Origin: Eledone cirrhosa
Lineage: Eukaryota
DNA: 64,000 nt
Direction: 5' to 3'
Assembly (NCBI GenBank): GCA_964016885.1
Contig: OZ024740.1
Coordinates: 30,690,001-30,754,000, forward strand
The position numbers were made by a program, and so were the translations under genes. Shown piece by piece: positions 689 to 41,908 of the stretch; position 1 is the stretch's first letter; every line of letters begins with the position of its first letter. The notes beneath the pieces were generated by a model. The model was not told where the DNA came from. It saw only the letters and a list, made by a program, of their open reading frames with translations, and ran no database searches.

Positions 689-900
689 TATAGTTAGAGA
701 AGCAAAAATTGTCTGGGTTTTCTCTTTTATACTTTATACTCCAAGATTGAATGGAATTCTTACAAACTTGTGGAGTTACCCATAACCGTACGTTCAAACC
801 ATCCATAAAACTGGCTTCGTTCAAACCATCCATAAAACTTTGCTTCGCTAACTACAGGCTCCTTATCGGTCGAGCAACCACCTAAACATACGGTACTGCT

Positions 901-3257
901 ATGGAAAAGTACTACATAGGTATGTCCCTAAAGAACATTCCTATACCTCGGAGAAAGGATTATACCCTCGGGATGATACAGCGAACAAACGACTTTATAC
1001 GCAGGGTTAGATGGAAAACTTTCCATTTCGACAAAGGACGTAATGGTCGCACCGTGGAATACAACAAGGAAACATACGGCTTCAAATCGTGTAAGAACCC
1101 ACCTACCAACCCTCAACTGGATACCTTTGAACAGGACTTACTGAAGATTATTATGAATATCAAATTCAAAAAGCGGAGGAATAATAAACTCCAGAATGAC
1201 ATAAATACATTCCTAAAAAACTGCGAACAAACCAATGGAATTATTGTCTTAGCGGACAAAACATCAAATGTGTATACGATGGATGTTAATACATAAAATA
1301 GCTTCATACGGAAGGAATTACATAGGAAATACAAAAACACTAATGAGGCGGCACTGATAAACATCAACAACGAGGCACACAATATATTCAAACACCTAGA
1401 AATAGACGACAGAACGGAGCCACTTAGGCCATGTACCCCCACATTTAACCTCAAGGACCACAAGGTAAATTTTGATTATAACCCCACAATTAGACTTATA
1501 TGCCCGTCCAAATCGGACATCGGGAAAATTATAAACATATATTAGACAGAGTGATAGCACAAATGAAGAATAAACTAGTGATTAAACTATGGGGTAACGC
1601 TACCGAAACAATTAAGTGGTTTAACAATATAGCTAACAAAGAAGTATCCAAATTTATACAATTTGACATTAACGATTATTACTCATCTATATCCCCCAAC
1701 ACCTTGGATAAAGCCTTAGCATTCGCCAAAGCCAATTCTGATATAACAGACAACGAGATAAAAATCATATTAGCTGCTAGGAAAACAATAAATAAATTTG
1801 AAAACGCCTATTGGGAACGTAAGGATAGATTAAATAACTTTGGCATCACGATGGGGGCTAACGACTCGGCTCAAGTCACAGATTTAGTAGGTATTTACAT
1901 AGCCCATAGTTTACAAAGTTAGTTTAGCGACCTTCACGGTGGAATCTACAGAGACGACGCCCTTCTCCTAGTTAAGAACCTAAATAACCAGAGCATAGAA
2001 AGACTCCGTAAGAATATTAGAAAGACTCTCGGGAAACTAGGCCTTAGCATAACGTATGAGTATAGCACTAAAACAGTTAACTTTCTAGACGCAACGCTTA
2101 ACCTAAATACGGGACTTATAAGACCTTTTCACAAGATTAATGAAAACTTAGCATACATCAACTGTAACTCAAACCACCCACTATCCATAATTAAATCCAT
2201 TCCACGCAGCATATCCCTTAGGATCTCCCGCCTCTCGTCTAACCGACAAATCTTCGAAAAACATGCAGAATACTACAATACCGCATTAGACAAGGCAGGC
2301 CACTTAGATAGAGTAGAATATATAGATGAAAGCCTCCGTGAAGCGCACACGAACACGCATAACACAAACTCCGGTAACACACGCACACACGCACTTACGC
2401 ATAGAACTGCGAAGTATACGGCAAATAGAAATACAACATCGAAATCAAACAAGTCACGCAGTAGAAAATATATTTGGTATAACCCCATATTTAACACCTC
2501 TATTAGTACTAACCTACCCTCTACCTTCTTTAGAATAATAAATAAGCACTTTCCAGATTCACATAGATACAGCAAAATCCTTAACACTAAATCTATTAGA
2601 CTATCTTATTCCACGGCACCAAATATAGAGGCACACATTAAAATGTTTAACGCTAAAAAGATACATAACAACACCAGAACACAAATTTACAACAAAAACA
2701 ATACAATCACCACCGAACACAACAGAATATCTAATACACAACCACCCGCTAATAGACAAACAAAATGTAACACACTTGTACAGGCATCGCAGCCCACCAA
2801 TAATGCCAAAGTTGCCCATGACAAGAATTGTAACTGCCACCTACCTGAAACCTGTCCATTACATAATGAATGTATGCAGTCTAACCTGGTTTACCAATGC
2901 ACAGTGGAATCAGACAACCAGAAATGGTATTACATCGGAGCGACTGGGAATAGATTTAAAGCCCGTTGGTATACACACCGTTACGCATTGAAACATTCCC
3001 AGCATCGTTATGTAACTACCCTTGCAAACAAGACCTGGCAACTGAGAGAAAGTAACCATCAATGCACCCTGAAGTGGAAAAAATTATCGAACGCGCCCCC
3101 ATATCGGAGTGGTATGAGCAGCTGTCGATGATGCGACCTTGAGCTGTTCCACATCTTGAGTTCGAAGAATAAGTTACTCAACAATAAAATCGAAAGATCA
3201 ATTTATTGTAACCATAGACTCAAAGAGAAGTTTTCGCACTACAAATCGAACCCTTAA
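901..3257 (+). pseudogene. Penelope-like element A, full-length RT + GIY-YIG ORF, disrupted (stops at 1294, 1920, 3129; frameshift near 1530)
   Basis: ADKT, FIQFDINDYYSSI, ITMGA, GGIYRDD (~1938-1958), VNFLD, SNHP, WYNP, CNCHLPETCPL linker, LVY...YIG, RFKARWYTH, LLN. Confidence 0.93.
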
Positions 3258-3489
3258 CCTCTTACTACCAACTGACAAACTGCATATACTTAGACTTTAT
3301 ACCCTCTTGTTGTATCTAAACCCTTTTAATTACCCACTAAACCAATACATATATCCCCCTCTCCTCCCTCATTCCTCTTCTATTTCTTCGTTTTCTTCCT
3401 TCCTTCCCTCCCCTTCTTGGCTATCTTTTCTTTTCTTCTTTCTCACCCCCTTCTTTGCTTTTATTTTTGTCATTATTATCTTTATCTTT

Positions 3490-3547
<58 letters not shown>

Positions 3548-3600
3548 TAAACAAATAATGAATAAACAATGAGACAGTTCCTTATATTAAACAAAAAAAG

Positions 3601-3754
3601 TTCATTATTTAACGATCGTTTCTAGGATATATATGTGTTAGAATTGGCATGCATATTCAACAGATCTATGTACAAAATTATACAAAATTATACAAACTAT
3701 CAAGATTAAATATACATACCAACACATATATACGCCGTCTTCAGAAATAATGAA
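3601..3754 (-). ncRNA. Mirror copy of the long-stem-II hammerhead
   Basis: Reverse complement of 14872-15025. Confidence 0.75.
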
Positions 3755-4402
3755 GTATATTTATTGATAATAACAACAATTCAAAATTTCAGGTCCGTTT
3801 GGGAACAAAATTGACCAATGAAAACACAAAAGGTTAAAAGCAGTTCGGTGTGTGTATATACATGTAAAACCCTTACACATATTTTACAAAAATGTATGCA
3901 TAATTTGTATACGCATACTAAAAGGATGGATGCAAATACAAAATTTCAAGGTTAATGTCTCTGTAAGTTTATAATGCACAGATAAGATGCGTATAGACAC
4001 ACAAATATGAAATAAGTATATAAATATATTTTTTCATACTCACACATATCCGTACAATCACACATACACGCGCGTATATGCATAAATATACACATAACCA
4101 CGAACATACAAACACACACACACCCCCACTCACATTTATATATGTGGATATAAAATCATAAGCACATGGATATTAATTCACTCACGTAAACACTGGCACA
4201 CACGTTTAGATCAAGATACAGAAATTAGGTGGGAGGGGGGGGAAGAGGTCAGTATTCAACGGTCTGGGCAGACTGCTTAATATAGATGTATCTATAAACT
4301 AAGAAAATAAAAAATAATAAATAATAAATAAACATTAAAGAGGAAAGAATAGAAAAAGAAAAAAGAAACAAGAAATATATCAAGAAAATATATATATATA
4401 TA

Positions 4403-4673
4403 AATATAGACATAGAATATTCGAAAATATTCTGTATGTTTATAATAAACATTTTGAAGACCTAATCGCTATAGAATAGAATACGTCACGTATTACAATT
4501 AGATTCTCGATAAAAGCAAGGGAAGTAATCTACGCGTTTCATTCTTGTTAGAATTCATCAGGACTACATATCCAGTGCTTTTATCGAGAATGACACAGCT
4601 AGAGACTTATAGAATACTTAGCTGTGTACAGGAACTGGTTTGAAAGAGCGGTTGCCGGTCCGGCAGAAATTAG
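4403..4673 (-). mobile_element. ~270-bp non-coding hammerhead-carrying element (retrozyme-like family F1) in (TA)n, present in left arm only
   Basis: Absent from mirror position ~14135-14237, which is essentially (TA)n; homologous to 37428-37790 and 43615-43910. Confidence 0.8.
4525..4567 (-). ncRNA. Minimal type I hammerhead ribozyme
   Basis: GTAGTC-CTGATGA-ATTCT aaca AGAAT-GAAA-CGCG-TA-GATTAC; enclosed by a 15-bp inverted repeat (4504-4518/4576-4590). Confidence 0.9.
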
Positions 4674-4726
<53 letters not shown>

Positions 4727-4878
4727 TACATACACACACACACACACATACATATATATACACATATACAAACACATACATACATATACACACATCCACA
4801 CTAAGAACATACATACACACACATATATAAACATATACATATACACACATACATACATATACACACACACATATAAAT

Positions 4879-4957
<79 letters not shown>

Positions 4958-5246
4958 CATACACACATACATACACATATAATCACACATACTATATAGA
5001 CACACATATATATACACACACATACACGCACATATACAACACTTACATACTTATATACATACAGATATACACGTACATAGCTATATATACACACAAATAT
5101 ATACAGACATACATACATACATACAGACAAATACTTACGCATCTATATATCGGTATATACATACAAACACCACTACACTATCACACAACTTAGACACACA
5201 AAGAGAAAGGTATATACCTATACACACATACATATACAAATAGAAA

Positions 5247-5308
<62 letters not shown>

Positions 5309-5559
5309 TATATATATATATATACACATACATATATACATACATATACACATACACACACATACACATACATACACATACATACATGTACACACACATA
5401 GAAATATATACGCATACACACATACACACATACATATAAAGTCATACACACACATACACCTACACGAACATACACATACACATATATAAAGATATATATA
5501 TACACACACACACACACACATACACACACACACATATATATAAAAAATAAATAATAAAG

Positions 5560-5608
<49 letters not shown>

Positions 5609-5955
5609 TATATACATACATACACATACATACACACATACATAGACATACATGTACATACATACACATACATAGATACATACACACACATACATACATA
5701 TATATATACACACATAGACATATACATACATACACACACAACTTACATACACACATATATATTCATACATAGAATTAGATATATAATCATACATACATAT
5801 GCACTTACATATACTCATATATACAAATACATACGCATCCATATATGCGTATATACATAGAAACACCACTACAACCTCACCCAACTCAGACATACAAATA
5901 AAAATAAAAAGGCATATGCATATACATATATACACGCATTAATAGAGATATATAT

Positions 5956-6053
<98 letters not shown>

Positions 6054-6296
6054 ATTCATATATATATATACATACCCACACACACATACCACCATAAATA
6101 CACATATAAACACCCACATATACATATATATACACACATATATATATATATATACACACACATAAAAAACAGACATGCACATATATATTTTTTTACACAT
6201 ATATATACACATATTATATACATATACACACTCTCACATATACACACATACACATAAGTTATATTATAATAATAAATAATATATATATATATATAT

Positions 6297-6345
<49 letters not shown>

Positions 6346-6389
6346 CATACACACATACGAATATAGACATATATACACACATAGACACC

Positions 6390-6423
<34 letters not shown>

Positions 6424-6622
6424 TACATATACACAGACACATATACACACTCACATATATATGTGTGTGCACACACACATATATACACATACACACATAT
6501 ACACATAAACACATATATGTGTATACATGCACACACACACATATATCCAAATAGATACGAAGATAGACATATAAATAGAGAGACATACATATATATACAA
6601 CCACACATACACACACATACAT

Positions 6623-6723
<101 letters not shown>

Positions 6724-8047
6724 CACATACACACATATACATACACACACACATACACATGCATATATACACATATACACATACATACACACACACATAT
6801 ATACACACACAATCTTACATTCATATTTGCGTGCGCATATATGTATTTTTATATTCAGATATAAATACCCAAACATATATACACACCTACCTACATATAT
6901 ATTCATACATACACGCTTACAAACACAGATGATAATAGTATGGGGGAAGGGGTGGGGGGGGTTGGAGAAGGGGATTATAGTAAATATATGTTTCAAGAAA
7001 CATAGAATATTATCCGTATCTGGATCCAATGTATGTTTTTACATAGTTTCAGTGTTAGGAAATACAATAAACAAGAAATAAGGCAAAATCTATGCATCTC
7101 AAAATAAACAAGTATACCATTAATTATATGTTAACTAAGCTAAAGATAGTTAACATATTGATTTCTAAGGTGTAAATTAGTTAGGTTTATAATATTTGAA
7201 GCAGAATTTTGAAGTTAAATAGTAGTAGAGTATTAATTATAGTATAACTAAATTAAAGTTAATAACGTTATGGTATCAATATTAGGAAATGAATTTAGTA
7301 ATAGGGAAAAAACAAATAAAGTATTACATCGGTAGTAGAATATAAATTATAGGTTAACTAAATTAAAAATTATATATTTATTTCTATAGTATATGTTAAT
7401 TAGGTATATAATAAATAAAACAGATATTGTATTTTATCAATAGCAGAATATAATTATATGCAAATAGAAATCAAAATTAATACATATACATATACATATA
7501 CATACACATACATATATACATATATATACATATACATATACACATACATACACACACACATACACATACACATATACATATACATATTTTTTTCAAAAAA
7601 TTGCATAGAATATATTAACTAGGTATATATCCAAAACACATCCCATTCTATGATTACATGACATTCTGCAATTCGTCTGTATAAGGATACTAATTTTAAG
7701 CAAATTAAATTAAATTTTTAGGTTGATTAAAATTAAAACCAAATTATAAATATATTTCTAAAATGTATATTAATTAGGTCTATAATACTAAAAATTATTT
7801 CTCTGTCATTGGATACACGATATTATTTTGTTATATTTTATCTGTAAAAGAATTATAATAAAAGGTTTAAATAAATTAAAATTAATCTATAAATTAAATT
7901 ACTAAGTATATATTAGTAATATTTAAAGGTTTTTCACAATTTATGATTACATAATATTTTATATTCTCATCTGTAATAAAATTTTAATTAAATTAAATTT
8001 ATAGGTTAACCAACATTTAAATTAAATTAATTTCTAAAATAATGTTA

Positions 8048-9510
8048 TTAATTAGGTTTATAATATTTAAATGTTTTTTTTAGTTTATGATTACACGATA
8101 TAATTAATTCCTGTCGTTTATTTAATAAGATATCCTTAGATTTCATTATTTCAAATAGTTCTTGGGAACATAATCTACATTCATTTCTATTATTTTGATA
8201 AGGGGTGGCTCTTTTGAGCACACTCCAGGTCAAATCATATTCTATATTCTTATTTTTATAACTATTGATTTTTTCTGCTAGAGATGTTGTATTAGCCAGT
8301 GCGGCATTTTTAAAACTATGCTTGTGGGTATTAAACCTTGTCTTAAAATTGTTAGAGGTAGCTCCTATATATGAGCAAATAGAATCTTTAGTTTTAACAT
8401 TACATTTATAGACTATGTTGTTAACAAGACAATTCCCTTTTAATGGGCAGTTTGCTTTGTTTCTACAGTTACATCCTTTCGTTAATTCTGTATTTGAGGA
8501 GATATTATGGTTAATTTGATGTACTGGTGGTATACTTATGGTTTTCTTACATTTATATGCATTATAGGCACTTATATTTTGTTTTATGTTATTTGTTGTA
8601 GAGTATGAGAATTTAACTGTAGACCTATTTAAGATTTGATGGTATTTGTGGTTTGGCGGGAAGTTTTTCTCTAGGATATAAAAAAATTTTTTAGCAATAT
8701 TATCCTTAACTTGTAAATTAAATGGAGCATTATACCAAGTAACCCGTCTATTACGGTTTCTATGTTGTTTATTATTTTTATTATTTTTATAGGTTGTATC
8801 GTGATTTTTACTAGGAGGATTAATGTTAATGATCTCACCACAACCATTTTTAGTTATATTTGTAGATTTAGGTGTTTTATCCTTTTTATTAGGAGTTTTA
8901 TTATTAATATTTATTAGAGTTGTATGATGAGTAGTTTTTTGAGAGTTACTATACTTTATATTAGAAGATTTGGTATTTTGGGGTATAGTGTGGGTGGCAT
9001 TTAGGTGTGTACTTTTCATTTGGTGTTTGTTGGTAATATTAGGTTGTATGCTTTCAGTATTTTTAGTAGAAGGTATATATTCTAATCTATTTTTGTGGCC
9101 ACTTCTATCTAGAGCTTCGTTATAGAAGGTCGCATTTTTATCAAATACATCTTGGTTAGAAGAAAGGTTAGAAATTCTAAATGATATATTATATGCAAGG
9201 TTTTTAAGGATAGATTTAGGGTGATTAGATTGTGAGTGTATGTAATGTAAGTTTTGGTTAGGTTTATGGTAAGGTTGGTAGATACCCGTAGCTAAATCTA
9301 AAGTTATATCTAGGAAATTTACTACTTTACTTGTTTTTTCAAAAGTAATATTAAGATTATAATAGTCTTTAAGGAAAGTTCTAATATGTTTTTTGTTTTT
9401 TTTCAATTTCTGAAAGGCTAAGGTTGTTAGAAAGAAGAAGACAGTCATCACGATATAAACCACCTTTGAGGTGGGGAAAAGAGGCATTTATGTTGAAAAG
9501 GAGAAATAAA
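8048..9510 (-). mobile_element. Penelope-like element B ORF, 5'-truncated just upstream of YRDD (RT C-half, thumb, linker, GIY-YIG)
   Basis: Spacer reads LFLLFNINASFPHLKGGLYRDDCLLL on the minus strand (YRDD 9444-9455). After an A-run frameshift the frame is open: VNFLDITLDL, SNHP, WYNAPF, CNCRNKANCPL, IVY..YIG, CRLC..E, LLN. Confidence 0.93.
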
Positions 9511-10830
9511 GACTATTATAATCTTAATATTACTTTTGAAAAAACAAGTAAAGTAGTAAATTTCCTAGATATAACTTTAGATTTAGCTACGGGTATCTAC
9601 CAACCTTACCATAAACCTAACCAAAACTTACATTACATACACTCACAATCTAATCACCCTAAATCTATCCTTAAAAACCTTGCATATAATATATCATTTA
9701 GAATTTCTAACCTTTCTTCTAACCAAGATGTATTTGATAAAAATGCGACCTTCTATAACGAAGCTCTAGATAGAAGTGGCCACAAAAATAGATTAGAATA
9801 TATACCTTCTACTAAAAATACTGAAAGCATACAACCTAATATTACCAACAAACACCAAATGAAAAGTACACACCTAAATGCCACCCACACTATACCCCAA
9901 AATACCAAATCTTCTAATATAAAGTATAGTAACTCTCAAAAAACTACTCATCATACAACTCTAATAAATATTAATAATAAAACTCCTAATAAAAAGGATA
10001 AAACACCTAAATCTACAAATATAACTAAAAATGGTTGTGGTGAGATCATTAACATTAATCCTCCTAGTAAAAATCACGATACAACCTATAAAAATAATAA
10101 AAATAATAAACAACATAGAAACCGTAATAGACGGGTTACTTGGTATAATGCTCCATTTAATTTACAAGTTAAGGATAATATTGCTAAAAAATTTTTTTAT
10201 ATCCTAGAGAAAAACTTCCCGCCAAACCACAAATACCATCAAATCTTAAATAGGTCTACAGTTAAATTCTCATACTCTACAACAAATAACATAAAACAAA
10301 ATATAAGTGCCTATAATGCATATAAATGTAAGAAAACCATAAGTATACCACCAGTACATCAAATTAACCATAATATCTCCTCAAATACAGAATTAACGAA
10401 AGGATGTAACTGTAGAAACAAAGCAAACTGCCCATTAAAAGGGAATTGTCTTGTTAACAACATAGTCTATAAATGTAATGTTAAAACTAAAGATTCTATT
10501 TGCTCATATATAGGAGCTACCTCTAACAATTTTAAGACAAGGTTTAATACCCACAAGCATAGTTTTAAAAATGCCGCACTGGCTAATACAACATCTCTAG
10601 CAGAAAAAATCAATAGTTATAAAAATAAGAATATAGAATATGATTTGACCTGGAGTGTGCTCAAAAGAGCCACCCCTTATCAAAATAATAGAAATGAATG
10701 TAGATTATGTTCCCAAGAACTATTTGAAATAATGAAATCTAAGGATATCTTATTAAATAAACGACAGGAATTAATTATATCGTGTAATCATAAACTAAAA
10801 AAAACATTTAAATATTATAAACCTAATTAA
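9507..10830 (+). mobile_element. Penelope-like element B ORF, fold-back mirror copy (starts downstream of YRDD)
   Basis: Identical protein from KDYYNL to YYKPN*; the N-terminal residues of the 468-aa ORF are antisense spacer read-through. Confidence 0.93.
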
Positions 10831-15148
<4,318 letters not shown>

Positions 15149-15380
15149 AAAGATAAAGATAATAATGACAAAAATAAAAGCAAAGAAGGGGGTGAGAAAG
15201 AAGAAAAGAAAAGATAGCCAAGAAGGGGAGGGAAGGAAGGAAGAAAACGAAGAAATAGAAGAGGAATGAGGGAGGAGAGGGGGATATATGTATTGGTTTA
15301 GTGGGTAATTAAAAGGGTTTAGATACAACAAGAGGGTATAAAGTCTAAGTATATGCAGTTTGTCAGTTGGTAGTAAGAGG

Positions 15381-17737
15381 TTAAGGGTTCGATTTGTAGT
15401 GCGAAAACTTCTCTTTGAGTCTATGGTTACAATAAATTGATCTTTCGATTTTATTGTTGAGTAACTTATTCTTCGAACTCAAGATGTGGAACAGCTCAAG
15501 GTCGCATCATCGACAGCTGCTCATACCACTCCGATATGGGGGCGCGTTCGATAATTTTTTCCACTTCAGGGTGCATTGATGGTTACTTTCTCTCAGTTGC
15601 CAGGTCTTGTTTGCAAGGGTAGTTACATAACGATGCTGGGAATGTTTCAATGCGTAACGGTGTGTATACCAACGGGCTTTAAATCTATTCCCAGTCGCTC
15701 CGATGTAATACCATTTCTGGTTGTCTGATTCCACTGTGCATTGGTAAACCAGGTTAGACTGCATACATTCATTATGTAATGGACAGGTTTCAGGTAGGTG
15801 GCAGTTACAATTCTTGTCATGGGCAACTTTGGCATTATTGGTGGGCTGCGATGCCTGTACAAGTGTGTTACATTTTGTTTGTCTATTAGCGGGTGGTTGT
15901 GTATTAGATATTCTGTTGTGTTCGGTGGTGATTGTATTGTTTTTGTTGTAAATTTGTGTTCTGGTGTTGTTATGTATCTTTTTAGCGTTAAACATTTTAA
16001 TGTGTGCCTCTATATTTGGTGCCGTGGAATAAGATAGTCTAATAGATTTAGTGTTAAGGATTTTGCTGTATCTATGTGAATCTGGAAAGTGCTTATTTAT
16101 TATTCTAAAGAAGGTAGAGGGTAGGTTAGTACTAATAGAGGTGTTAAATATGGGGTTATACCAAATATATTTTCTACTGCGTGACTTGTTTGATTTCGAT
16201 GTTGTATTTCTATTTGCCGTATACTTCGCAGTTCTATGCGTAAGTGCGTGTGTGCGTGTGTTACCGGAGTTTGTGTTATGCGTGTTCGTGTGCGCTTCAC
16301 GGAGGCTTTCATCTATATATTCTACTCTATCTAAGTGGCCTGCCTTGTCTAATGCGGTATTGTAGTATTCTGCATGTTTTTCGAAGATTTGTCGGTTAGA
16401 CGAGAGGCGGGAGATCCTAAGGGATATGCTGCGTGGAATGGATTTAATTATGGATAGTGGGTGGTTTGAGTTACAGTTGATGTATGCTAAGTTTTCATTA
16501 ATCTTGTGAAAAGGTCTTATAAGTCCCGTATTTAGGTTAAGCGTTGCGTCTAGAAAGTTAACTGTTTTAGTGCTATACTCATACGTTATGCTAAGGCCTA
16601 GTTTCCCGAGAGTCTTTCTAATATTCTTACGGAGTCTTTCTATGCTCTGGTTATTTAGGTTCTTAACTAGGAGAAGGGCGTCGTCTCTGTAGATTCCACC
16701 GTGAAGGTCGCTAAACTAACTTTGTAAACTATGGGCTATGTAAATACCTACTAAATCTGTGACTTGAGCCGAGTCGTTAGCCCCCATCGTGATGCCAAAG
16801 TTATTTAATCTATCCTTACGTTCCCAATAGGCGTTTTCAAATTTATTTATTGTTTTCCTAGCAGCTAATATGATTTTTATCTCGTTGTCTGTTATGTCAG
16901 AATTGGCTTTGGCGAATGCTAAGGCTTTATCCAAGGTGTTGGGGGATATAGATGAGTAATAATCGTTAATGTCAAATTGTATAAATTTGGATACTTCTTT
17001 GTTAGCTATATTGTTAAACCACTTAATTGTTTCGGTAGCGTTACCCCATAGTTTAATCACTAGTTTATTCTTCATTTGTGCTATCACTCTGTCTAATATA
17101 TGTTTATAATTTTCCCGATGTCCGATTTGGACGGGCATATAAGTCTAATTGTGGGGTTATAATCAAAATTTACCTTGTGGTCCTTGAGGTTAAATGTGGG
17201 GGTACATGGCCTAAGTGGCTCCGTTCTGTCGTCTATTTCTAGGTGTTTGAATATATTGTGTGCCTCGTTGTTGATGTTTATCAGTGCCGCCTCATTAGTG
17301 TTTTTGTATTTCCTATGTAATTCCTTCCGTATGAAGCTATTTTATGTATTAACATCCATCGTATACACATTTGATGTTTTGTCCGCTAAGACAATAATTC
17401 CATTGGTTTGTTCGCAGTTTTTTAGGAATGTATTTATGTCATTCTGGAGTTTATTATTCCTCCGCTTTTTGAATTTGATATTCATAATAATCTTCAGTAA
17501 GTCCTGTTCAAAGGTATCCAGTTGAGGGTTGGTAGGTGGGTTCTTACACGATTTGAAGCCGTATGTTTCCTTGTTGTATTCCACGGTGCGACCATTACGT
17601 CCTTTGTCGAAATGGAAAGTTTTCCATCTAACCCTGCATATAAAGTCGTTTGTTCGCTGTATCATCCCGAGGGTATAATCCTTTCTCCGAGGTATAGGAA
17701 TGTTCTTTAGGGACATACCTATGTAGTACTTTTCCAT
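15381..17737 (-). pseudogene. Penelope-like element A, mirror copy with the same disabling lesions
   Basis: Reverse complement of 901-3257; identical ORF fragments except R>C at 1000/17638. Confidence 0.93.
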
Positions 17738-17759
17738 AGCAGTACCGTATGTTTAGGTG

Positions 17760-18049
17760 GTTTGTATAATTTTGTATAATTTTGTACATAGATCTGTTGA
17801 ATATGCATGCCAATTCTAACACATATATATCCTAGAAACGATCGTTAAATAATGAACTTTTTTTGTTTAATATAAGGAACTGTCTCATTGTTTATTCATT
17901 ATTTGTTTAATATTTTATCTTGACTCTGTATACCGTTTATCTTTCACCGAAAGTGATTTTTCATTACATCTCTTCTTTCCATGATATCCGGAATACATTG
18001 AGTTCTTCATACGGATTGGACACTACCGTAAACTCTTGGTAGATTTATC

Positions 18050-18577: not shown

Positions 18578-18640
18578 TAGGAATGAGTAGGACCCCGACG
18601 GCTGAGCTCAAGCTGTTTCGACGGCTAATTCTGGACTAAA
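18578..18640 (-). mobile_element. F2 fragment
   Basis: GACCCCGACGGCTGAGCTCAAGC..CTGGACTA matches 183-230. Confidence 0.65.
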
Positions 18641-19336
18641 TGAACATTTTTATCCTGTTAAATGAATAGCGCCGAACTTCTCAGGAGGTAATTCCTTATA
18701 TGGTAAAAGTGATTGTCACAAGGATTGGTCAAAAGTTTGTTGTTGAGACACATGATTCTATCATGGCATTTTGTGGAAGGTAGGGGTTGCTGAACTTGTC
18801 AGTAGAAGAAAGATGGAGAGGGAGTGGAGGAAACCCAGTCGAGCGTTGAAAGTGACAACTACAGCAGATTCAAAGGATAGGAGGTTGAAAGAAGTATACT
18901 AGAGAAGGGGAGGGGGAGAAAGTCGAAACAATAAGTAAATCTATATGGAGAAAATATATAGAAAAATATTTAAAATATTAAAAATATTTTAAAAAAACAA
19001 TTTCTGGTTACTATTCCCCTTCCACAATCATCAAATCTCTCACTGGTACTGCTAAGCTATAAAAAAAAGTTTAATAGGTGGGACGGAATACTAAATGGCA
19101 GGTCAACAAGTAGGGGGCCAAAATACGAAAAAAAAGAAAAACTAATACGAAAAAATAATTCAGAGTCCCGAAACTAATACGAAATATTAATTCAGAATCC
19201 CGAAACATGAATACTAATACGATATATATGAGTACTGCTACAATACATAAATTCTAATACAAACTACATAAATGCTCGTACAATATATATGAAAAACTAA
19301 TACGAAAAATTAATTCAGAATCCACCCCCCAAAAAT

Positions 19337-19442
19337 AAATAGCCGTCGGGTCATACTCGTTCCTATTACCCACTCTACTACCCTAAGTATTGAGTACTTT
19401 GGTGCGTTATGGTCCATCTGGTTCCTTACCACATTTCCTTCG

Positions 19443-19446
<4 letters not shown>
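19337..19446 (+). mobile_element. F2 fragment, opposite orientation
   Basis: Reverse complement of ~88-195, with internal deletion. Confidence 0.7.
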
Positions 19447-21125: not shown

Positions 21126-21129
<4 letters not shown>

Positions 21130-21268
21130 CGAAGGAAATGTGGTAAGGAACCAGATGGACCATAACGCACCAAAGTACTCAATACTTAGGGTAGTAGAGT
21201 GGGTAATATGAACGAGTAGGACCCCGACGGCTGTGCTCAAGCCGTTTCGACGGCTAATTCTGGACTAA
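21126..21268 (-). mobile_element. F2 copy
   Basis: AACGAAGGAAATGTGGTAAGG...CTGGACTA. Confidence 0.75.
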
Positions 21269-21325
21269 AAATTATTAATATTAATTCAAAATATTAACAA
21301 AATAGATATTCTTGTGATCAATTAT

Positions 21326-21402
21326 ATTTTATTATACATATTTCAGAGGCACTGAGTTAAGTTTAACAGTAAGTTTAACAGTACGTCCTCATCAGATAAA
21401 AT
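21326..21402 (-). ncRNA. Type I hammerhead ribozyme (mirror, 12-nt duplication in loop II)
   Basis: Reverse complement of 21418-21482 with 2 substitutions and a small duplication. Confidence 0.65.
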
Positions 21403-21417
21403 AGGATGCATCATCCT

Positions 21418-21482
21418 ATTTTATCTGATGAGGTCGTACTGTTAAACTTAACTCAGTACCTCTGAAATATGTATAATAAAAT
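21418..21482 (+). ncRNA. Type I hammerhead ribozyme
   Basis: ATTTTAT-CTGATGA-[GGTCGTACTG..CAGTACCTCT]-GAAA-TATGTA-TA-ATAAAAT; weak A/U stem III. Confidence 0.7.
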
Positions 21483-21634
21483 ATAATTGATCACAAGAAT
21501 ATCTATTTTGTTAATATTTTGAATTAATATTAATAACTCTGGAAAACAGACTGTTGAGTGGTTCCAATCTATTGTAAAACTCATTCTTTGATATATTCAT
21601 TGAACCTTGTTTAACTTTTAAATATATATATATA

Positions 21635-21920
<286 letters not shown>

Positions 21921-22995: not shown

Positions 22996-23000
<5 letters not shown>

Positions 23001-23176
23001 TCTACTATTGGCACAAGGCCAGAAATTACCCAGTACATTACTGGTACTTTATTTTATCGACCCCGTAAGGATGAAAGGCAAAGTTAACCTCGGCGGGATT
23101 TGAACTCAGAATGGCAATGGTCGTAACTCTATGCGTCAAAGCATGGCGTCCGACCCTCTACCGATACTGCCAATCC
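22996..23176 (-). mobile_element. tRNA-derived SINE (octopus-type)
   Basis: B-box GAGTTCAAATCC, core TTTGCCTTTCATCCTTACGGGGTCGATAAAATAAA..GTACCAGT; multiple copies in window. Confidence 0.8.
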
Positions 23177-23514
23177 ACTATATATAGATAGATAAATATA
23201 CACGGGTGTGTATGATTGTGTATAGAAGATTATATTAATAAGAGGAATTCCAACTTTGTCTGATTTACTCGTTTTATTTACAATCCTTTAAAATTTATAA
23301 TGATATTATAATGAAATAGTATGCTAGAATATTAAATGTTAAGTGTTAATTGAACAAGTACTGTCATGCTTTCGCAATCTTCAGGTTAATAATGTGTGGT
23401 GACAGTGAAGTTTGCAATTTTCAACAGTTGAAAATTGCAAACTTCACTGTCAAGTACACACACATAGATGTGCATACACACACATAAACATATACACATA
23501 TATATATGTACACA

Positions 23515-23585: not shown

Positions 23586-26197
23586 TCTTATCATACATAC
23601 ATAGATACATGTATACCCATGCAATTACAGGTGGTTATGTACCTTGATGCCCTTAGTCAGTAACACATGAATCTATGGAAGCTAAAAAAATTAAAAGGTT
23701 AAAAAATAAAAAAATAAACAGGAAGGCATATAATTAGAGGAAAGGGATACTAACAAATGGTACGTCACATAGCTCTATAGTGAGTTGTTATTTAGAGTGT
23801 TTAATTAGGTTTATAGTACTTAAATGCTTTTCTTATACGGTGATTACAAGCTATAATCAGTTCCTGTCTTTTATTCAATAAATCGTCCTTAGATTTAGTC
23901 ATTTCCAAGATCTCCCCGGAACATAATCTGCATTTTCTTCTGTTCCCAAGATATGGAGTTCTTTGCAGAATGGTATCCCACGATAGCTTGACATCTATTT
24001 TTTTTTCTTTTTATAGTTATTTACTGCTTCAGCTGAAGATGTGGTGTTAGCTAGTTTAGTATTGTTAAAGCTATTGGAGTGTGCATAATATCTTTTCTTA
24101 AATGTGTTCGATGTAGATCCTATATATGATTTGTTTGAGTCAGTAGTAGACACAGTGCATTTATATATTACATTATTAATCAAACAGTTGCCATTTAAGG
24201 GGCAAGCGCTTCTATTTCTGCAATTACAACCATACGTAAGATGGTTGTTGGGGGTACCTATATAATTCTCATTAATCCTTGAGCTATTTTTATTGTAATT
24301 AATGTTAGAGAGAGAATGAGTGCTGCTTTGTGGGTGATTTAGTGCAGGGGTTGTATTGTGATTTTGTGTTATGTTGTTTTTGTGTTGGTGATTTGGGTGG
24401 TTGTGTTTTCCAGGTTGAGGGATTGTATTATTTGTCTTTTTAAAAGATGCAGTCTTATTTAAATTATGTTGTGGTGATGTGGTCATATTATTTTTAAATT
24501 TATAAATGTTGTAGCTGCTTATTTTTTGCTGGAGATTGTTTGATGTAGAGTATGAGAATTTAATAGTATACCTGTTAAATATTTGGTGGTATCTGTGGTT
24601 TGGTGGAAAATGTTTATGTAGAATTTCGAAGAATTTTGGGGGGATTTGTCCAATAGTTTGCAGGTTGAAGGGTGCGTTGTACCATGGTATGTTTCATTTG
24701 CGGTTTTTAGTTAAGTTCTTATTCACACTTATATGAATGTGCTGTGTTCTAGAAAAGTTCTTATGGTTAGTATTTGTATTCGTGGAATTTTGTAAATTGC
24801 AGTGATTGTATTTGGTGTTATTATTGGGTAGATTATGAGAGGTTGAATGCTTGGTAGTCATATGTGAGTTGTTAACATTGGTCATAGATCGTGTAGTAAT
24901 AGTTGTTGTGGTTTTTCGGTTGTTTGATGTGATAGGAATGACCCCATTAGGCATTTGTTTCGATGGTATTTTTTGGTGTTTGTAGTTTTTGCTAGGTTTT
25001 GTAGTATGGTCCATAATAGTGTTGGGGATATATGAAATTTTTTATTTATATCCACTTCTAGTTAGGGCCTCGTTGTAGAAGGGTGCATTTTTATAAAATA
25101 TATCCTCATTGGAAGATAATTTAGAAAGTCTAAGAGATATGTTATATACTAAGTTTTTGAGTATAGAGCCAGGGTGGTTAGAGCATGAATGTACATAGTG
25201 TAGATTCTGGTCGGGTTTGTGGTAAGGTTGATAAATATTAGTAGAGAGGTCTAAGGTAACGTCAAGGAAGTTAGCTACTTTTGAGGTGTTTTCAAAGGTG
25301 ATGTTAAGGTTGTAATAGTCCTTGAGGAATTTTCTAATTTGTTTTTTTTTTGTTTTTCTCTATATTAGAATTGCTAAGATTGTTAGATATCAATAGACAA
25401 TCATCCCGATAAAGACCACCTTTAAGGTGGGGAAAAAAGGAATGAATATTATAGAGGAGAAATAGTCCAACGAAGTCCGTAACTTGAGCAGAGTCCATGG
25501 ATCCCATCGTTATATCGAATAAGTTGTTATATGTGTTTCTTGTCCAGTGTTCTTGGAAGTTTAGTAAGGTCTTTCTAGCGTGAGTTATGATGTTGATTTC
25601 CTCAGTAGATAAATCCGATCTATTTCTGGCAAAGATCAGTGCTTTGTTTAAGAGAATTGGAGAAATCAAAAAATAGTAAGAATCGATGTCGAATTGTATG
25701 AATGAAGCTGAGTTTTTATTCTCGATGTTAGTGAACCATTCAATAACCTGGGAAGTGTTATCCCATAATGGAAGTGTTACAAATTTTCTAATCTGTGGAA
25801 TGATTCGATCAATAATTTTCTTGCTGATAGTATCAATATCAGATTTTGATGGGCATATCAATCTAATGGATGGGTTCGAATTAAAGTCATATTTGTGGTC
25901 CTTCAGGTTGAAGTGCGGGCTTTTAGGTGTGAAAGGCTCCGTCCTATCTTCAATATGGAGTTTTTTTTACTATAACACATGATATGTTGTTCAAGGATGT
26001 CAGTGCGGTGGTGCTGGTTTTCTTATAATTTTTTCTAAGTTCTTTATAAACGAACTGGTTATATTTATCGATGTCCATATGGTACAGATTACCAGTTTTG
26101 TCAGAATGGACATGGACCTTGTTTGAATTTTTCAGTTGCAGAAGGGTAAAGTCTAATCCCTTTTGGAATTCAGATTTATGTTTCCTGAACTTTATGT

Positions 26198-26541
26198 ATG
26201 CAGAATAGACCCCACAACTAAGCGTGGATATTTCTGTGCATCTTGCTCCTTCAATATATTTTTTCATAATTGTCTCCACTTCTGTGATTATAATATTTAG
26301 TCGAGCTCTTCTTTTATCTAATTCCTGCATCACAATGGAAAAACAATATTTGGGTACTTCGTTGAAGAATATTCCGATTCCACCTAAAGATTTCATTGTT
26401 TTAACTTATAACATGACTCTGTTTTCCTTTTGATGTTCTATTGTTTTCCGGGATTTATTTTAACCTACAACATTTTCAACATGTGGATTACATTGAGTTC
26501 TTCATGCAGAATAGATCCCACAACTAACCGTGGATATTTTT
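26198..26541 (+). mobile_element. Inverted 5' cap of PLE C: pLTR end + 5'UTR + ORF start (ATG 26335) + second pLTR piece
   Basis: MEKQYLGTSLKNIPIPPK is homologous to the A N-terminus MEKYYIGMSLKNIPIPRR; 26198-26240 repeats at 26503-26541; 26393-26410 matches the C 3' terminus. Confidence 0.75.
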
Positions 26542-26747: not shown

Positions 26748-26803
26748 GAAATAGCCGTCGAAACGGCTTGAGCTCTGCCGTCGGGGTCCTGAACCTTTTC
26801 CTA
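26748..26803 (+). mobile_element. F2 fragment joined to an inverted SINE piece
   Basis: AAATAGCCGTCGAAACGGCTTGAGCTCTGCCGTCGGGGTCC. Confidence 0.65.
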
Positions 26804-27060: not shown

Positions 27061-27300
27061 GTGAGGTTTTTTTACAAAATGAAAAATAACCGAGGTGTCC
27101 TACACGAGTGAAAGTATAGAGAAAAAAAGATGAAATTGAAAATGCAACTGGAGTTTTATTTTTTTTTAAATATATATATTTATTTGGTTCCTTTACCGAT
27201 TTCGCAGTTCTTCTGCTTTTCAAAAGTAGAGTTGAGATGGAGGGTCTGGGGTTTTTCTCACATCTGATGTGAGAAAAACCACAGACCTTCCATCTCAACT
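27053..27300. repeat. F3 copy with short fold-back (27255-27300)
   Basis: Matches 19978-20192, then inverts. Confidence 0.75.
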
Positions 27301-28159: not shown

Positions 28160-30895
28160 ACCTACACACGCCAGCCACTCACCCCCGATGCCGCGCTGTG
28201 CCCCAGTCCCTGGCCACTAACCCCATCCTCCATCCCCTGAAGCCAACACCTGCAGCACTTACAGCACCACTAACAGACGGAAGAGGGGCCGGAACTGTTC
28301 GGGGTGCGGCTGCTTCCACCTCCTCACCTGTGTTGGCTTGACACGTCGAGCCTCCAGTGCACTCGCCAGGTGAAGATGCAGGAACTGCCTCTTCCCCTTG
28401 TCTTCCAAGCGTGCCCAGGGACGCCACACACCCCACCCTCGGGTACCCCCAATCCTCCACCCCTGAGGCCAGCGTCAAGCATTTGCGCGACCGCGTAAAT
28501 GCTAAATTAATCATGGGTGATGTCTCGGCCGCAGTCAGTGTGGTTGCCTCAGAGGACACTGTCCTCCAACCCACCGAGGGGGTCCTGATTTCCCTGTGAC
28601 TCAAGCACCCTGAGCCACCTGCTGATCTCAGACCCATACTCCAACCCGACCCCCACTTGCTCTTTGTGGCTTCTGATGCAGACATCATGTCCGCCATCAG
28701 GTCCTTCCCAGCTAGCAGCAGCGGAGGTGTTGATGGTCTCCGCCCAGGCCACCTCAAGGAGCTCCTATACCCCTCTCCGTTGAGGCCGGGCGCCGCCTTC
28801 TGAGTGCAATTGTGACGCTCACCAATAGGCTCATCCATGGCACCCTAGACCCTTACGCCCGAGGCCTGTTTTTTTCGGCTAGCCTCACCGCTCTCAGGAA
28901 GAAAGAGAGTGGCATACGCCCCATCGTCGTGGGCAACATCTTCCGGAGGTTGGCTGCCGAGGTGGTCTGCAGGTCCATAACACTCGAACTGGGTAAGGAG
29001 TTCAGTCCGGTGCAACTGGGTGTCAGCGTGTCCGGTGGCTGTGAGGGAGCCGCACATGCAACCAGGCAGTTCTTCAACAGCTGCCCACCGGAACTGGCAT
29101 CCTGGGACTCCAGGCACCTCATTGTCAAGCTTGACATGAGGAATGCCTTCAACTGCTTACGCCTGGACCATCTGCTCGAAGACTGCCTCAGCCAGGCCCC
29201 CTCTTCCTACCCGCTGGCCCTCCTGTCGTATGGAGCCCCGAGCATGCTCCTTGCTGCTGATACGATCAGACCTTCGGCCACTGGGGTCCAACAGGGCGAC
29301 CCTTTGGAACCCCTAATGTTTGCCCTTGGTATAGACCACATCGCACGGAGTATCACGGCTCCTCTCAACGTTAGGTATCTGGATGATGCTACGTTGGGCG
29401 GGCCCGTACTGACCGTCTGCCATGACCTACAATCGGTGGTTCCTTCCCCGGCAGGAATCGGCCTCCAGGTCAACTCGGCCAAGTCAGAGGTGGTGAATGT
29501 TAGTCACGGTGCTGAGAGTTTTGCAGCCTCCGTCTCGGACGTGCGGTCCATTCTCCACCAGGTACAGGTGACCACCAAAGAGGATGTTCTCATCCTCAGG
29601 TCACCGATCCACCCACCGGCCACCAGCTCCACTATCAGGTCCAGGCTTCAACAATCCAGACTCTCACGAGCTGACTGGGCCTGATCAATGGCCACCCAGC
29701 CCTCTTTCTATTGAGGAACTGCTTCGCCATGCCGAAGTTCCGCTATACCCTTCGCAGCGCTCCGTGCTACACTCACACATCTCTCCTCACTGACCTCGAT
29801 ACTTGTATCCGAGAAGCAGCCGAGGAGATATGCAACGTCAAGTTTGACGACATTGGCTGGCAACAGGCCACTTTACCTGTCAGGTATGGCGGCCTTGGTC
29901 ACCGATCTCACTGGCTTTTCCGGCGTATCTTTCGTCGGTAACCTCGTGTCACGTCCACGTCAGCAGGTTTCTGCTAAACACAATAGAACCCTATGTGTTC
30001 AGGGAACGTGAGGCCGCCTGTGAGACGTGGGACCGGCTGGGACTTAGCCCAGTAGACGTTCCTCCTCCTTCTCCCCCTGTTGGCGTAAAGTCCCCCCAAA
30101 GCACTTGGGATGCCATCCAGTGCAGCCTGGCCTCAGACAGGCTCACGCGCCAGCTCGACCAGCACCGCCTTGCCTGTTTTCGTGCGGCCTCCAAACCCCA
30201 CAGTGGTGCCTGGCTCCATGCCCTGCTCTCCTTCTCCACTGGCACGCAGCTAGACAATAATAGCCTGCGCATTGGCGTTTCCTTGAGGCTCGGCCTTCGG
30301 ATCTGCGAGCCACACCAATGTCGCTGCGGATTCACCGTGGACCCTTTCGACCTCCACCCGCTTTCCTGTCACCACAATGCCGGCCACCTTCCTCGCCATC
30401 CTGCTCTCAACGAAGTCATAAAGCATGGATTGGACGCTGCAGGCTTCCCTTCCCAGCTCGAGCCGGTGGAACTGGACCGAGGGGACGGCAAAAGGCCAGA
30501 TGGCATGGCCATCTTCCCGTTCCGCGGTGGGTGGCAAACCCCTCGTCTGGCATATCACTTGCACCGACACTTTCTGCAGCTGCAACCTGGTGCAGTCTGC
30601 GATTAACCCGGGTTCTGCTGCACATCGGGCTGAGGAGGCTAAAATCCTCAAATACCGGTCGCTCTCCGACAGGTTTGCAGTTGTACCCCTGGCAGTGGAG
30701 ACTTCTGGTGTCCTCGGCCCTAGGGCTACCTCCCTACTCACCACCATAGGCGCTGAGCTGGCCAGCCGCAGGTGTGAGCCCCGCGAGTTGGAGTGGCTTT
30801 TCCAGCGCGTCTCCCTTGCCGTCCTCCGGGGAAACGCCTTCTCCATTCTGACCGCCGGTGCTGTGGGGCGCCCCATCGCGTATCATTCCATATTT
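28160..30895 (+). mobile_element. CRE-clade (RLE) non-LTR retrotransposon, decayed
   Basis: GGVDGLRPGHL, GIRPIVVG, QLGV, KLDMRNAFN, GVQQGDPL, YLDD; CRCG..H..SC knuckle; KRPDG and AVETSGVLG restriction-like endonuclease; several frameshifts/stops. Confidence 0.88.
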
Positions 30896-30917
30896 AATTA
30901 TGGTCGGTATGTGTATG

Positions 30918-31033
<116 letters not shown>

Positions 31034-32106
31034 TTACGGTTTTCTACACTTTGGAGCCAGAGTCAGTGATCAGGCTGCTATTTTTAGCACATTCAGCACC
31101 TAATGACTTAATGCTTGAATTGTTAAATTTGTTAACACTATCTTTTCTAAAGTTTATTGTGTCTTTAGAAATAGTTATTTTGTATCATTGAAGTCACCGT
31201 TGAAGCAGTTAAAAAGGAATGTTGTGGCAAATATCATCATAAGGCATTACGACGTTTTTTGATATATAATTTATTTACAAAGATGAGAAGTTGAGTTAGC
31301 TGTGTTGACATGTCATAAGAAATAAAATAAAACAAATTAAGATGCTGTAAAAGAATACGCAGACCGGTGGCTAATATGGGGCCACGGCGCGGTAATTGTT
31401 TGATAGCTACATTTTGGAAAGTTTGTTGAGCAAAATCAAGAGATGTTTACCTTCATGGTATCGAGCGGCAAGAGAGATTTTCGAAGCGAAGCGGGAATTT
31501 TTCCCTTTCGGCGAAAGTTGAAATACATCTCCCTACGCTGGTAGCGATTGGCTGATCTGAGCCAAACAACGTACGGAGAATGTATTCAAGAGCCGTCAGA
31601 ATGTAGGTCACTACATGTCTTTGAAAAATTTTGCTTCATTATTTATTTTTTACAAGCAACTCAAGCATTACCACTTTAAAATAACTAAACACTCACCGTT
31701 TAAAAAATATTTCTACTTTTTAAAATTGATTTCGAACCATTTAACCTTTTAACTAGATATCATAAAGTCTTTGTTGATTACATATTGTAATCAGAAAATT
31801 TCATCAACACAGTCATAATGTACACCATCGAAAATATATCTGCAGAATATGCTTTATTAAAATAAAGTTATGAACAAATAAATTGGGAGTCACTAAACTC
31901 TATTTATGTAGTTTCATTTATATCGTGAAAGAAGTATAAAACAGATGTTGATGCTTTTCTTATGTATATGACATGACGGGAGAGACACCAGTGACAAAAC
32001 CTATCTATTAATTTTGAAAACAAAAATATACTATTTGATGTGTATGTGTATTTGTTTATACATAATAAGCAGTCTGTGTCATGACAAATAGTTTGGTGCA
32101 ATACTC

Positions 32107-33192: not shown

Positions 33193-33496
33193 TATAAATA
33201 AATACATAAACATTAATTGTTAGAGAATACAATATTGTATTCTCTAACAATTTCTATATTAATGCTCTGACTATACACTTTTTGCTTGACATATCTCTCG
33301 CTTACTTTCACTGTTCGCTTGTCTTGTACTTTATACGCATTGAGCACACTGTCCTTTTCACTACTGGCTTATAATTCTCACAACTAATCTCCTATCTCTC
33401 CTTCTTGATTGGTTAGTACAAATACTTTTGATATATTTCGTTTCTGAATTTGTTTAGCAAGATTCTTTATCTGAAATCGTGTGTTGAAACCGATAT

Positions 33497-33585
33497 TGTT
33501 ATACTTTGGGAGGGTCATGTTGCCAATAAGAAACACACGTGCGTGTGTTTCTTATTGGCAACATGACCCTCCCAAAGTATAACAA
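33497..33585. repeat. Near-perfect ~89-bp palindrome formed from a dispersed repeat (non-inverted copy at ~35013-35085)
   Basis: TTGTTATACTTTGGGAGGGTCATG...CATGACCCTCCCAAAGTATAACAA. Confidence 0.85.
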
Positions 33586-37427: not shown

Positions 37428-37790
37428 GGTATTAGTATTGATGCTCTGAAATAGCGATGTATACATGAATGTATGTATAGTATATTTGGCAATATACTGT
37501 ATGTTTAATTAAAAACATTTAGAAGACCATTCGCTATGAATTCTAAAGTAGTGACTATGTCATTACTTAATCTCGGCAAATAACAGACAGTCTGTTTCTC
37601 GCTTGTGAGCATTTATCAAGACCACATTCATGTATACATCGGTATTTCAGAACATCAATCCTAATACCTAATTTTTGCTGGACCGGCAGTCGCTCTATAT
37701 AATCAGGTCCTGATTATTACTGGAATTCTATAAGAATCCAGCTTCTATAATTCTCGGCAAAGCCAACAGAGTGTGTGGTCTTGATAAAGG
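37428..37790. mobile_element. F1 retrozyme-like copy, inverted and circularly permuted; degenerate hammerhead ~37580-37626 (-)
   Basis: Homology to 4403-4673 and 43615-43910; TTGATAA..GAAA-CAGACTG-TC. Confidence 0.65.
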
Positions 37791-37963
37791 CAATATCGGT
37801 AGAGGGTCGGACACCATGCTTTGACGCATAGAGTTACGGCCTTTGCCATTCTGAGTTCAAATCCCGCCGATGTTAACTTGGCCTTTCATCCTTACGGAGT
37901 CGATCAAATAAAGTACCAGTAATGCACTGGGTAATTGCTGGCCTTCTGCCAGAAGTAGAAACA
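37788..37963 (+). mobile_element. tRNA-derived SINE
   Basis: Same family as 22996-23176. Confidence 0.8.
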
Positions 37964-39866: not shown

Positions 39867-40053
39867 GTAAAAGAGTCAGAATCCCGGCGGCAGAAGTCAA
39901 GCCGTTTCGAGTCCAGAAATAGCTGTCGAAACGGCTTGAGCTCTGCCGTCGGGGTTCTGACTCTTTTCCTATTACTCACTCTACTACCAAAAGTATTGAG
40001 TACTCTGGTCCGTTATGGTCCACCTGATTCCTTACCACACTTCCTTCGTTATA
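39866..40053 (+). mobile_element. F2 copy with inverted 5' duplication
   Basis: AGTCCAGAAATAGCTGTCGAAACGGC...CCTTCGTTATAT preceded by its partial reverse complement. Confidence 0.75.

Positions 40054-41820: not shown

Positions 41821-41908
<88 letters not shown>

Follow-up and report, generated by a model that had tools for sequence, protein, structure and literature searches.

Why does a non-coding unit stand in one arm of a nearly perfect palindrome and not in the other? The DNA analysed here (the window) is a stretch of 64,000 nucleotides from Eledone cirrhosa with the character of AT-rich, animal-like repeat DNA, its load of tRNA-type SINEs and microsatellites resembling that of cephalopods; its last part, 56070-64000, is ~8 kb of a degenerate satellite with a 5-nt period (GTGTG/GTGTA type) and an extreme strand skew. 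A solo retrozyme-type monomer of 271 bp, here called U1, occupies positions 4403-4673 on the minus strand, within the left arm of the palindrome; an initial annotation had described it as a ~270-bp non-coding unit confined to one arm, and this description holds. Two matters have to be settled: what kind of element the unit is, and whether it entered a palindrome that already existed or was lost from one arm of it. Statements taken from the literature refer throughout to excerpts of the papers cited.

The palindrome and its two arms

The young palindrome spans 876-17762, ~17 kb, with arms of ~8.5 kb. The left arm (876-9371) consists of a degenerate Penelope-like element (PLE; A), a segment that we call C, U1, a CA/TA tract and the 3' part of a second PLE (B). 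A spacer of 135 nt (9372-9506, minus strand) separates it from the right arm (9507-17762), which is without U1. Aligned over ~8,225 nt, the arms differ by three substitutions (at 1000, 1742 and 4186; ~0.04% divergence), by slips in the length of TA runs and homopolymers and by one large block, 4403-4673, which only the left arm has. CpG transitions account for two of the three substitutions, the right arm being the decayed one each time; the two arms have thus been evolving separately to some extent.

Several observations identify the left arm as the template. In translation the spacer is reverse transcriptase (RT) sequence of PLE B, including GLYRDD, and it runs on without a break into the left arm alone; the left-arm copy of A retains its start codon, upstream sequence and TA flank; and the right arm breaks off at 17762 with a switch through 3 nt of microhomology, the outside sequence being met at the border of a TA run. 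The piece at its outer end (17763-17917) is an inverted copy of ~3542-3697, placed there via 3-nt and 2-nt microhomologies as by a template switch. Because of the continuity of the spacer, the intact 5' flank of the left-arm A and the template switch, we infer that the left arm was copied and that the right arm is the foldback copy. The plus-strand end at 9506 is the stop point expected of a cDNA of the minus-strand element B. A cDNA of PLE B ending at 9506 would have folded back over 135 nt and copied its own strand on into ~6 kb of flank. The palindrome is likely to have come from such a foldback of the cDNA of a 5'-truncated PLE with Hydra-clade motifs, ending with a templated jump of 155 nt. 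A young B fits the 446-codon open frame of this element, set against the several stops of A. The palindrome with its jump (876-17917) is possibly more unusual than U1 itself. Short foldback (inverted) duplications also lie at 42824-43564, 33496-33585, 27230-27300, 23400-23452 and 33215-33252, and one scan of the masked window returned ten.

The hammerhead ribozyme and the fold of the unit

The minus strand of U1 carries a type I hammerhead at 4525-4567. Helix I has 6 bp (4567-4562 with 4530-4525; five Watson-Crick pairs and one GU) and is followed by the core CUGAUGA (4561-4555), a 4-bp helix II with the 6-nt loop UAACAA (4554-4541), GAAA (4540-4537) and the palindromic loop III CGCG (4536-4533); cleavage is predicted at the GUA site, between 4531 and 4530. 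The position, strand, CTGATGA/GAAA core, CGCG and GUA site had all been read correctly in the initial annotation. The catalytic core is complete (CUGANGA, GAAA, NUH and the C3-G8 pair). In helix III one A-U pair carries the CGCG loop, and a fifth pair, U-A, is able to extend helix II.

Canonical type I hammerheads of metazoans have a helix I of 6 bp, a helix II of 4 bp and a helix III of 1-2 bp with a palindromic loop, and are active as dimers, whereas in the min-HHR of PLEs helix II is longer, helix I is shorter and loop 1 is ill-defined (PMC4209133). The helices of U1 have the canonical lengths and loop; the min-HHR features (helix II of 7-8 bp, helix I of 4-5 bp, poorly defined loop 1, an extra nucleotide after position 9 and G10.1-C11.1) are absent from it. 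Judged by its sequence, the ribozyme is of the canonical metazoan retrozyme type, and the earlier label 'minimal' is wrong by the definitions given in PMC4209133.

Loop 1 is a module (4521-4573) in which a 3x1 internal loop (UAU 4570-4568 opposite U1.7 at 4524) is closed by a 3-bp GGA/UCC helix. The loop lies six pairs from the core with U1.7 unpaired, and the 6-nt loop 2 ends in A. The two contact residues, U1.7 and the terminal A of loop 2, are present in U1, in its relative U2 and in a tandem dimer described below, and by analogy a tertiary contact between loops 1 and 2 is predicted for U1. Residues that make the Hoogsteen contact between these loops have been described, in a paper that also argues that U7 is not essential (PMC11875169).

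Outside this module the arms of an inverted repeat (5' arm 4576-4591, 3' arm 4503-4518, minus strand) extend helix I outwards; the repeat had been noted around the hammerhead at 15 bp and measures 16 bp, with 16 of 16 pairs Watson-Crick. Four hairpins on the minus strand complete the fold: a 5' hairpin (4653-4665, 5/5 Watson-Crick), H1 (4593-4627), whose loop sequence is kept in both relatives of U1, H2 (4480-4494, 7/7) and a 3' hairpin with a UUCG loop (4414-4433, 8/8) inside the conserved 3' region. Reading H1 as a SECIS element was dropped on inspection, there being no GA quartet. The fold of the unit is far more stable than those of shuffled sequences (z = -5.3 on the minus and -5.8 on the plus strand; none of 200 shuffles equally stable on either), and the hammerhead helices form with pairing probabilities of 0.85-1.0 within the whole unit. 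The 54 pairs scored over seven strict helices comprise 53 Watson-Crick pairs and one GU, and U1 is therefore without visible decay. Two cofolded copies give a swapped dimer (-72.7 kcal/mol) with a 6-bp ACGCGU helix, a gain of 7.9 kcal/mol over a pair of separate monomers (2 x -32.4 kcal/mol). The ribozyme is predicted to cleave as a dimer.

A strict type I descriptor gave three matches in the 47,034 unmasked nucleotides, compared with a mean of 0.005 in 200 Markov simulations, of which one had any match. Rfam returned no match at the gathering threshold across the whole window. The only E-value match within 4410-4670 was Hammerhead_HH9 (RF02275; 23 bits, E = 0.0013), and the E-value search of the dimer and U2 region gave 48 matches, none to a hammerhead family. 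RF02275, a type I family with an extended helix I and a loop 1, is the best structural match to U1; helix III of U1 is much shorter, the score is below the gathering score of 52, and U1 is not a member. Nothing hints at a prokaryotic or vector origin: a 29-nt hammerhead stretch had no exact match in GTDB genomes and blastn gave no match in phages or plasmids. A 13-nt conserved motif of the unit is absent from the supplement of PMC8557442.

Relatives of the unit and a tandem dimer

BLAST and profile searches within the window found two relatives, U2 and U3, both on the minus strand and 67% and 69-70% identical to U1, respectively; the window holds no near-identical second copy. U2 (43615-43908) has an intact hammerhead (core at 43814), a 3' tail at TA and an inverted 5' piece. 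U3 (37428-37791) has the U3-A8 variant of the core, a deleted cleavage site, a 3' tail and an inverted piece with a tail-to-start tandem junction at ~37668; UUGAUAA stands in both of its internal hammerhead copies (37600-37791), and covariation of the U3-A8 kind has been described (PMC4209133). SINE-like repeat copies lie at 22996-23190, 37789-37964 and 48794-48992; one adjoins U3 and may have truncated it.

All three copies of the family end at TA. U2 and U3 run ~31 nt beyond the TA-rich motif at which U1 stops, so that this tail is carried by two of the three copies and is missing from U1. As a TATATATA motif belongs to the family's own sequence at this point, the 3' end of U1 grades into the adjoining TA run. 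An inverted 5' piece is likewise found in two of the three, overlapping the direct piece by ~27 nt in U2 and 18 nt in U3. In the inverted piece of U3 the tail runs straight into the start of the unit, and that start is the exact 5' end of U1. This junction indicates that the template was arranged head to tail, with a monomer of ~310 nt and no coding body.

Between U1 and U2, four of the six pairs of helix I have changed on both sides and one on one side, and all still pair; in helix II one of the four pairs has changed on both sides, again with pairing kept, and the 3x1 loop and U1.7 are retained. As far as two sequences can be compared, the structure is one that has been under selection in the history of the family. 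U2 combines its intact core with a perfect 19-bp repeat.

A tandem hammerhead repeat of another family lies at 41905-42790 on the plus strand (2 x 420 nt plus 42 nt), its units 98% identical and TA on both sides. Its cores are at 42063 and 42483, with CUAG as loop III and UAAUAA as loop 2; the UAU/U loop 1 of the first unit is identical to that of U1, and the second unit has a mismatch in helix I. In sequence layout this is the arrangement of a non-LTR retrozyme. U1 itself is solo, U3 has a partial head-to-tail junction, and a full dimer is found only in the other family. A further pair of hammerhead-like motifs, head to head (cores at 21395, minus, and 21425, plus), lies in a 265-nt palindrome (21272-21536) joined to a TA-inserted repeat and is unrelated to U1. 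Another non-coding repeat family, in which no hammerhead was detected, sits mostly in TA runs and has foldback ends, with copies 85-97% identical (91-290, 18581-18641, 19341-19443, 21129-21270, 21755-21917, 26748-26801 and 39869-40049).

Neighbouring PLEs

Three PLEs lie near the family. A (~901-3490, plus strand) is degenerate, with several stops, and has the motifs RWK, DKT, linker and YIG. B (minus strand, ending at 9506) is 5'-truncated with an uninterrupted frame of 446 codons; it has the linker, YIG, CxxC and CxH motifs, and a DKT match in its linker region is a chance one. B2 (~23600-26540, minus strand) is degenerate, with several stops and frameshifts, is 69% identical to B and has DKT, linker and YIG. 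Hydra PLEs are described as having RWK, DKT and CxCX5C motifs, (TA)n targets and 3' hammerheads (PMC8557442). Where their sequence reaches, A, B and B2 agree with the Hydra clade in RWK, DKT, the CxCX5C linker, a C-terminal GIY-YIG domain and the (TA)n target, an assignment made by motifs and not by a tree. Naiad was dropped as an assignment, the endonuclease being C-terminal, and so was a selenocysteine reading of a TGA in A: the residue opposite this codon in B is Leu, and TAA and TAG stops occur in A as well. Pfam named none of seven ORFs of A, B and B2, with one sub-threshold match to DUF7863, and the 76 proteins returned by a homologue search with B are mostly unnamed and do not place its clade. 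The window also holds GC-rich LINE-like RT fragments at 28179-31069, 47000-47948 and 52466-55443 (Pfam RVT_1, zf-RVT).

Two descriptor scans found no hammerhead in the 3' regions of A, B and B2, where decay or truncation is possible. Comparison of U1 with the 3' ends of A, B and B2, with segment C and with the 5' end of A gave TA-type matches only. None of these neighbouring TA-targeting PLEs shares sequence with U1, and we therefore name no mobilizing partner; none of the three family copies in the window is attached to an ORF with RT and GIY-YIG. The family nevertheless has PLE-type traits around it: TA ends in three of three copies, an optional tail, inverted 5' pieces and Hydra-motif PLEs nearby. 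By analogy, U1 was probably moved by PLE machinery. The suggestion that the unit uses TA-targeting PLE machinery is supported indirectly by these traits; the three PLE 3' ends share no sequence with U1.

What kind of element is it?

Metazoan non-LTR retrozymes are, like U1, non-coding, low in GC, 150-450 bp long and highly self-paired, with a canonical type I hammerhead; dispersed monomers are common, and both an origin from PLEs and mobilization by them have been proposed (Cervera & de la Peña, 2020, PMC7229834; 10.64898/2026.07.22.740005). The case for mobilization is argued from co-occurrence, tandem structure and pLTR similarity (10.64898/2026.07.22.740005, PMC7229834). Animal retrozymes have been derived from pLTRs, with dispersed monomers again common and cleavage in vitro in one of nine retrozyme dimers (Li, Clavereau & Pollet, 2026, 10.64898/2026.07.22.740005). 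Further hallmarks of the class are expression as monomer RNAs in linear and circular form and, where there is one, a target-site duplication (TSD) of more than 4 bp. The family of U1 has a non-coding unit of ~310 nt, within the 150-450 nt range, with a type I hammerhead and no LTR. It differs in that U1 is solo, and so not 'active' by the two-unit rule of the preprint (10.64898/2026.07.22.740005), in that its tandem form is a partial junction in a 70%-identical relative, known here from DNA alone, and in that U1 has an empty site in cis. The sequence evidence of a canonical type I hammerhead and a head-to-tail junction without a coding body supports a retrozyme-like class, as the initial annotation had it.

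A close counterpart is the ribozyme of the axolotl and newt HHR_Amex1 type, which also has a single-pair helix III with a palindromic tetraloop and the loop 1-loop 2 architecture (PMC7229834). In U1, by contrast, helix II is closed by A-U where G10.1-C11.1 is usual, the site is GUA and helix I has its 16-bp outer extension. The axolotl HHR_Amex1 monomer reached 6% cleavage within one hour, and the dimer was far more efficient (PMC7229834).

The unit could instead be the solo pLTR of a heavily 5'-truncated autonomous PLE and not a member of a non-autonomous family, which we consider unlikely. The pLTRs of EN+ PLEs, especially of the Hydra clade, resemble the family in having a hammerhead near the 3' end, (TA)n targets and an optional tail of 30-40 nt (PMC8557442, PMC3846280, PMC4209133), and in their overlapping inverted 5' copy, their solo copies and a TATATATA motif followed by an Inr-like motif, with a spacing similar to that in U2. 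Specifically, pLTRs are described as ~200 bp long, with a 31-bp tail that may be absent, with TSDs of 8-10 bp, as solo copies and with an inverted pLTR whose overlap is 15 bp (PMC3846280), and truncated PLEs leave single terminal repeats (10.64898/2026.07.22.740005, PMC4209133). In size (271 bp), in the place of the hammerhead (~130 nt from the 3' end), in the optional tail and in the TA target, the unit agrees with pLTRs of Hydra and other elements, and the tail of 30-40 nt and the inverted 5' copy are each seen in two of the three family copies. Against this, the tail of U3 runs straight into the unit's own start without a coding body, no family copy has an attached ORF, the ribozyme is canonical with a defined loop 1 and not the min-HHR typical of metazoan PLEs, and the unit does not resemble the 3' ends of the window's three PLEs.

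When scored against consensus patterns for TATA/Inr-type motifs, U2 has a TATATATA and an Inr-like match, the A of which lies 28 nt after the first T; in U3 both motifs are mutated. In pLTRs a TATATATA box lies 20 bp from an Inr-like motif (PMC3846280). The pair in the sequence of U2 is suggestive only, hinting at a pLTR-like start.

Filled and empty sites

In the left arm U1 is bounded by a TA tract of 15 nt at its 3' end (4388-4402) and by one of 13 nt at its 5' end, followed by one C and then a 35-nt tract (4674-4722). The mirror site in the right arm (14136-14238), which had been called bare (TA)n, is indeed a 21-nt tract, A(TA)10, with the same C interruption and then an 81-nt AT tract. 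Of the remaining TA tracts no longer than 21 nt, 19 of 19 are the same in both arms, so the length of the empty tract can be relied on. The filled site thus has 15 + 13 - 21 = 7 extra nucleotides of TA, which are inseparable from TA brought by the element and may be derived from its RNA and not a TSD. Seven extra nucleotides fit an insertion without further slip, as a short duplication or RNA-derived TA would give.

On the strength of this arithmetic and of the undecayed helices, we think it probable that U1 inserted after the palindrome had formed. A rather unlikely course is that the flank already contained U1 and that the right arm lost it, either by skipping from TA to TA through slippage during foldback copying or by a later deletion; the class of the element would be unchanged and the asymmetry would say nothing about recent mobility. 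The left arm being the template, by its spacer, its A 5' end and TA flank and the template switch of the right arm, presence on the left only is also what skipping in the foldback copy would give. A later insertion could equally well have struck the other arm, and in this respect the position of U1 counts against it. The template switch further shows that the copying process jumped once. Among the 17 intervals of 30-900 nt that were folded as DNA, none is more structured than U1 (-0.148 kcal/nt); such structure could promote skipping, and TA repeats of 15 and 13 nt flank the unit. The long tract beside the site has the largest length change of the nine long tracts (4688-4722 compared with 14136-14216: 35 and 81 nt, a gap of 46 nt). 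Hammerhead units are common, with five loci in the window, and one in the flank would be unsurprising; U2 too has an intact core, so that the intactness of U1 dates it loosely and need not mean that it is brand new. Yet a deletion or slip at the best overlap, 13 nt, would leave 15 nt and not 21, and short tracts do not slip (19 of 19). Of the 31 inter-tract intervals, 30 are kept in the copy and only that of U1 is missing. U1 is undecayed, whereas U3 has lost its cleavage site and A has several stops. The other piece of flanking sequence in the window (17763-17917) ends short of the site of U1.

Very improbably, the asymmetry or the palindrome itself is a product of assembly, either as a foldback chimera or by joining arms from two haplotypes for which U1 is a heterozygous presence/absence variant. 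Near-identical 8.5-kb arms, a short spacer and microhomology junctions, all seen here, are also typical of amplification chimeras, and the nine long tracts all differ in length between the arms, as they would from read errors. Two of the three substitutions, however, are CpG transitions with the decayed state on the right; a period spent in a methylated genome, or an origin from two haplotypes, accounts for these better than read error. At its centre the palindrome has a PLE truncated at the 5' end together with a shorter inverted copy, a natural structure that has already been described (PMC8557442, PMC3846280). Arms from two haplotypes would imply that U1 is still polymorphic and so recent. 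The weights given here to insertion, loss and assembly or haplotypes, in descending order, are judgements and not computed, and that on the solo pLTR overlaps them.

Proposed mechanism

Our best explanation, which we hold to be probable, is that U1 is a solo monomer from a family of non-coding hammerhead repeats, that this family is likely one of non-LTR retrozymes going back to a PLE terminal repeat, and that U1 was likely retrotransposed in trans into a TA run after the palindrome had formed. A tandem source locus elsewhere would be transcribed, and two hammerheads could pair via their CGCG loops and cut the multimer. A PLE endonuclease, most likely of the Hydra clade, would cut one strand of a (TA)n run, and the end so exposed would pair with the UAUAUAUA motif carried by the RNA itself; annealing there is proposed as the reason why U1 stops at this point without the 31-nt tail. 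Reverse transcription would then proceed to the start of the unit, leaving ~7 extra nucleotides of TA. The ends of U1 lie away from the site of ribozyme cleavage, so the RNA that was copied is likely to have been uncut, multimeric or circular rather than a cleaved linear monomer. With one cleavage site, a solo monomer is unable to yield a ~300-nt circle, and the copy itself is predicted to be a dead end, a single ribozyme with a weak helix III that releases no unit-length RNA.

A more specific account is tentative and on balance doubtful: U1 would be a dated, empty-site-anchored retrotransposition of a retrozyme by a Hydra-clade PLE that is currently active. Its ends, like those of its relatives, would be fixed not by the cleavage site but by an internal UA-rich motif at which TA primes reverse transcription and by a TATA/Inr start like that of pLTRs, and the same RT could fold back and so duplicate ~6 kb of host flank as a palindrome.

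Significance

The kind of element is already known, and the family of U1 appears to be undescribed; a literature search, with most subscription papers outside its scope, found no description of it among the excerpts covered, nor, by title and start of abstract, a paper on polymorphic insertions of metazoan retrozymes. If U1 was skipped during copying, it is an ordinary solo repeat. If the insertion is true, the window would preserve one retrozyme jump almost directly, with both ends readable: the occupied and the empty site stand in cis, in arms that differ by ~0.04%. The window also has candidate partners in its Hydra-motif PLEs, one of them with an uninterrupted 446-codon frame, and the tandem repeat at 41905-42790 is a ready retrozyme dimer for an assay of cleavage and circles. 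The value of U1 lies in its being a testable, dated pair of empty and filled sites.
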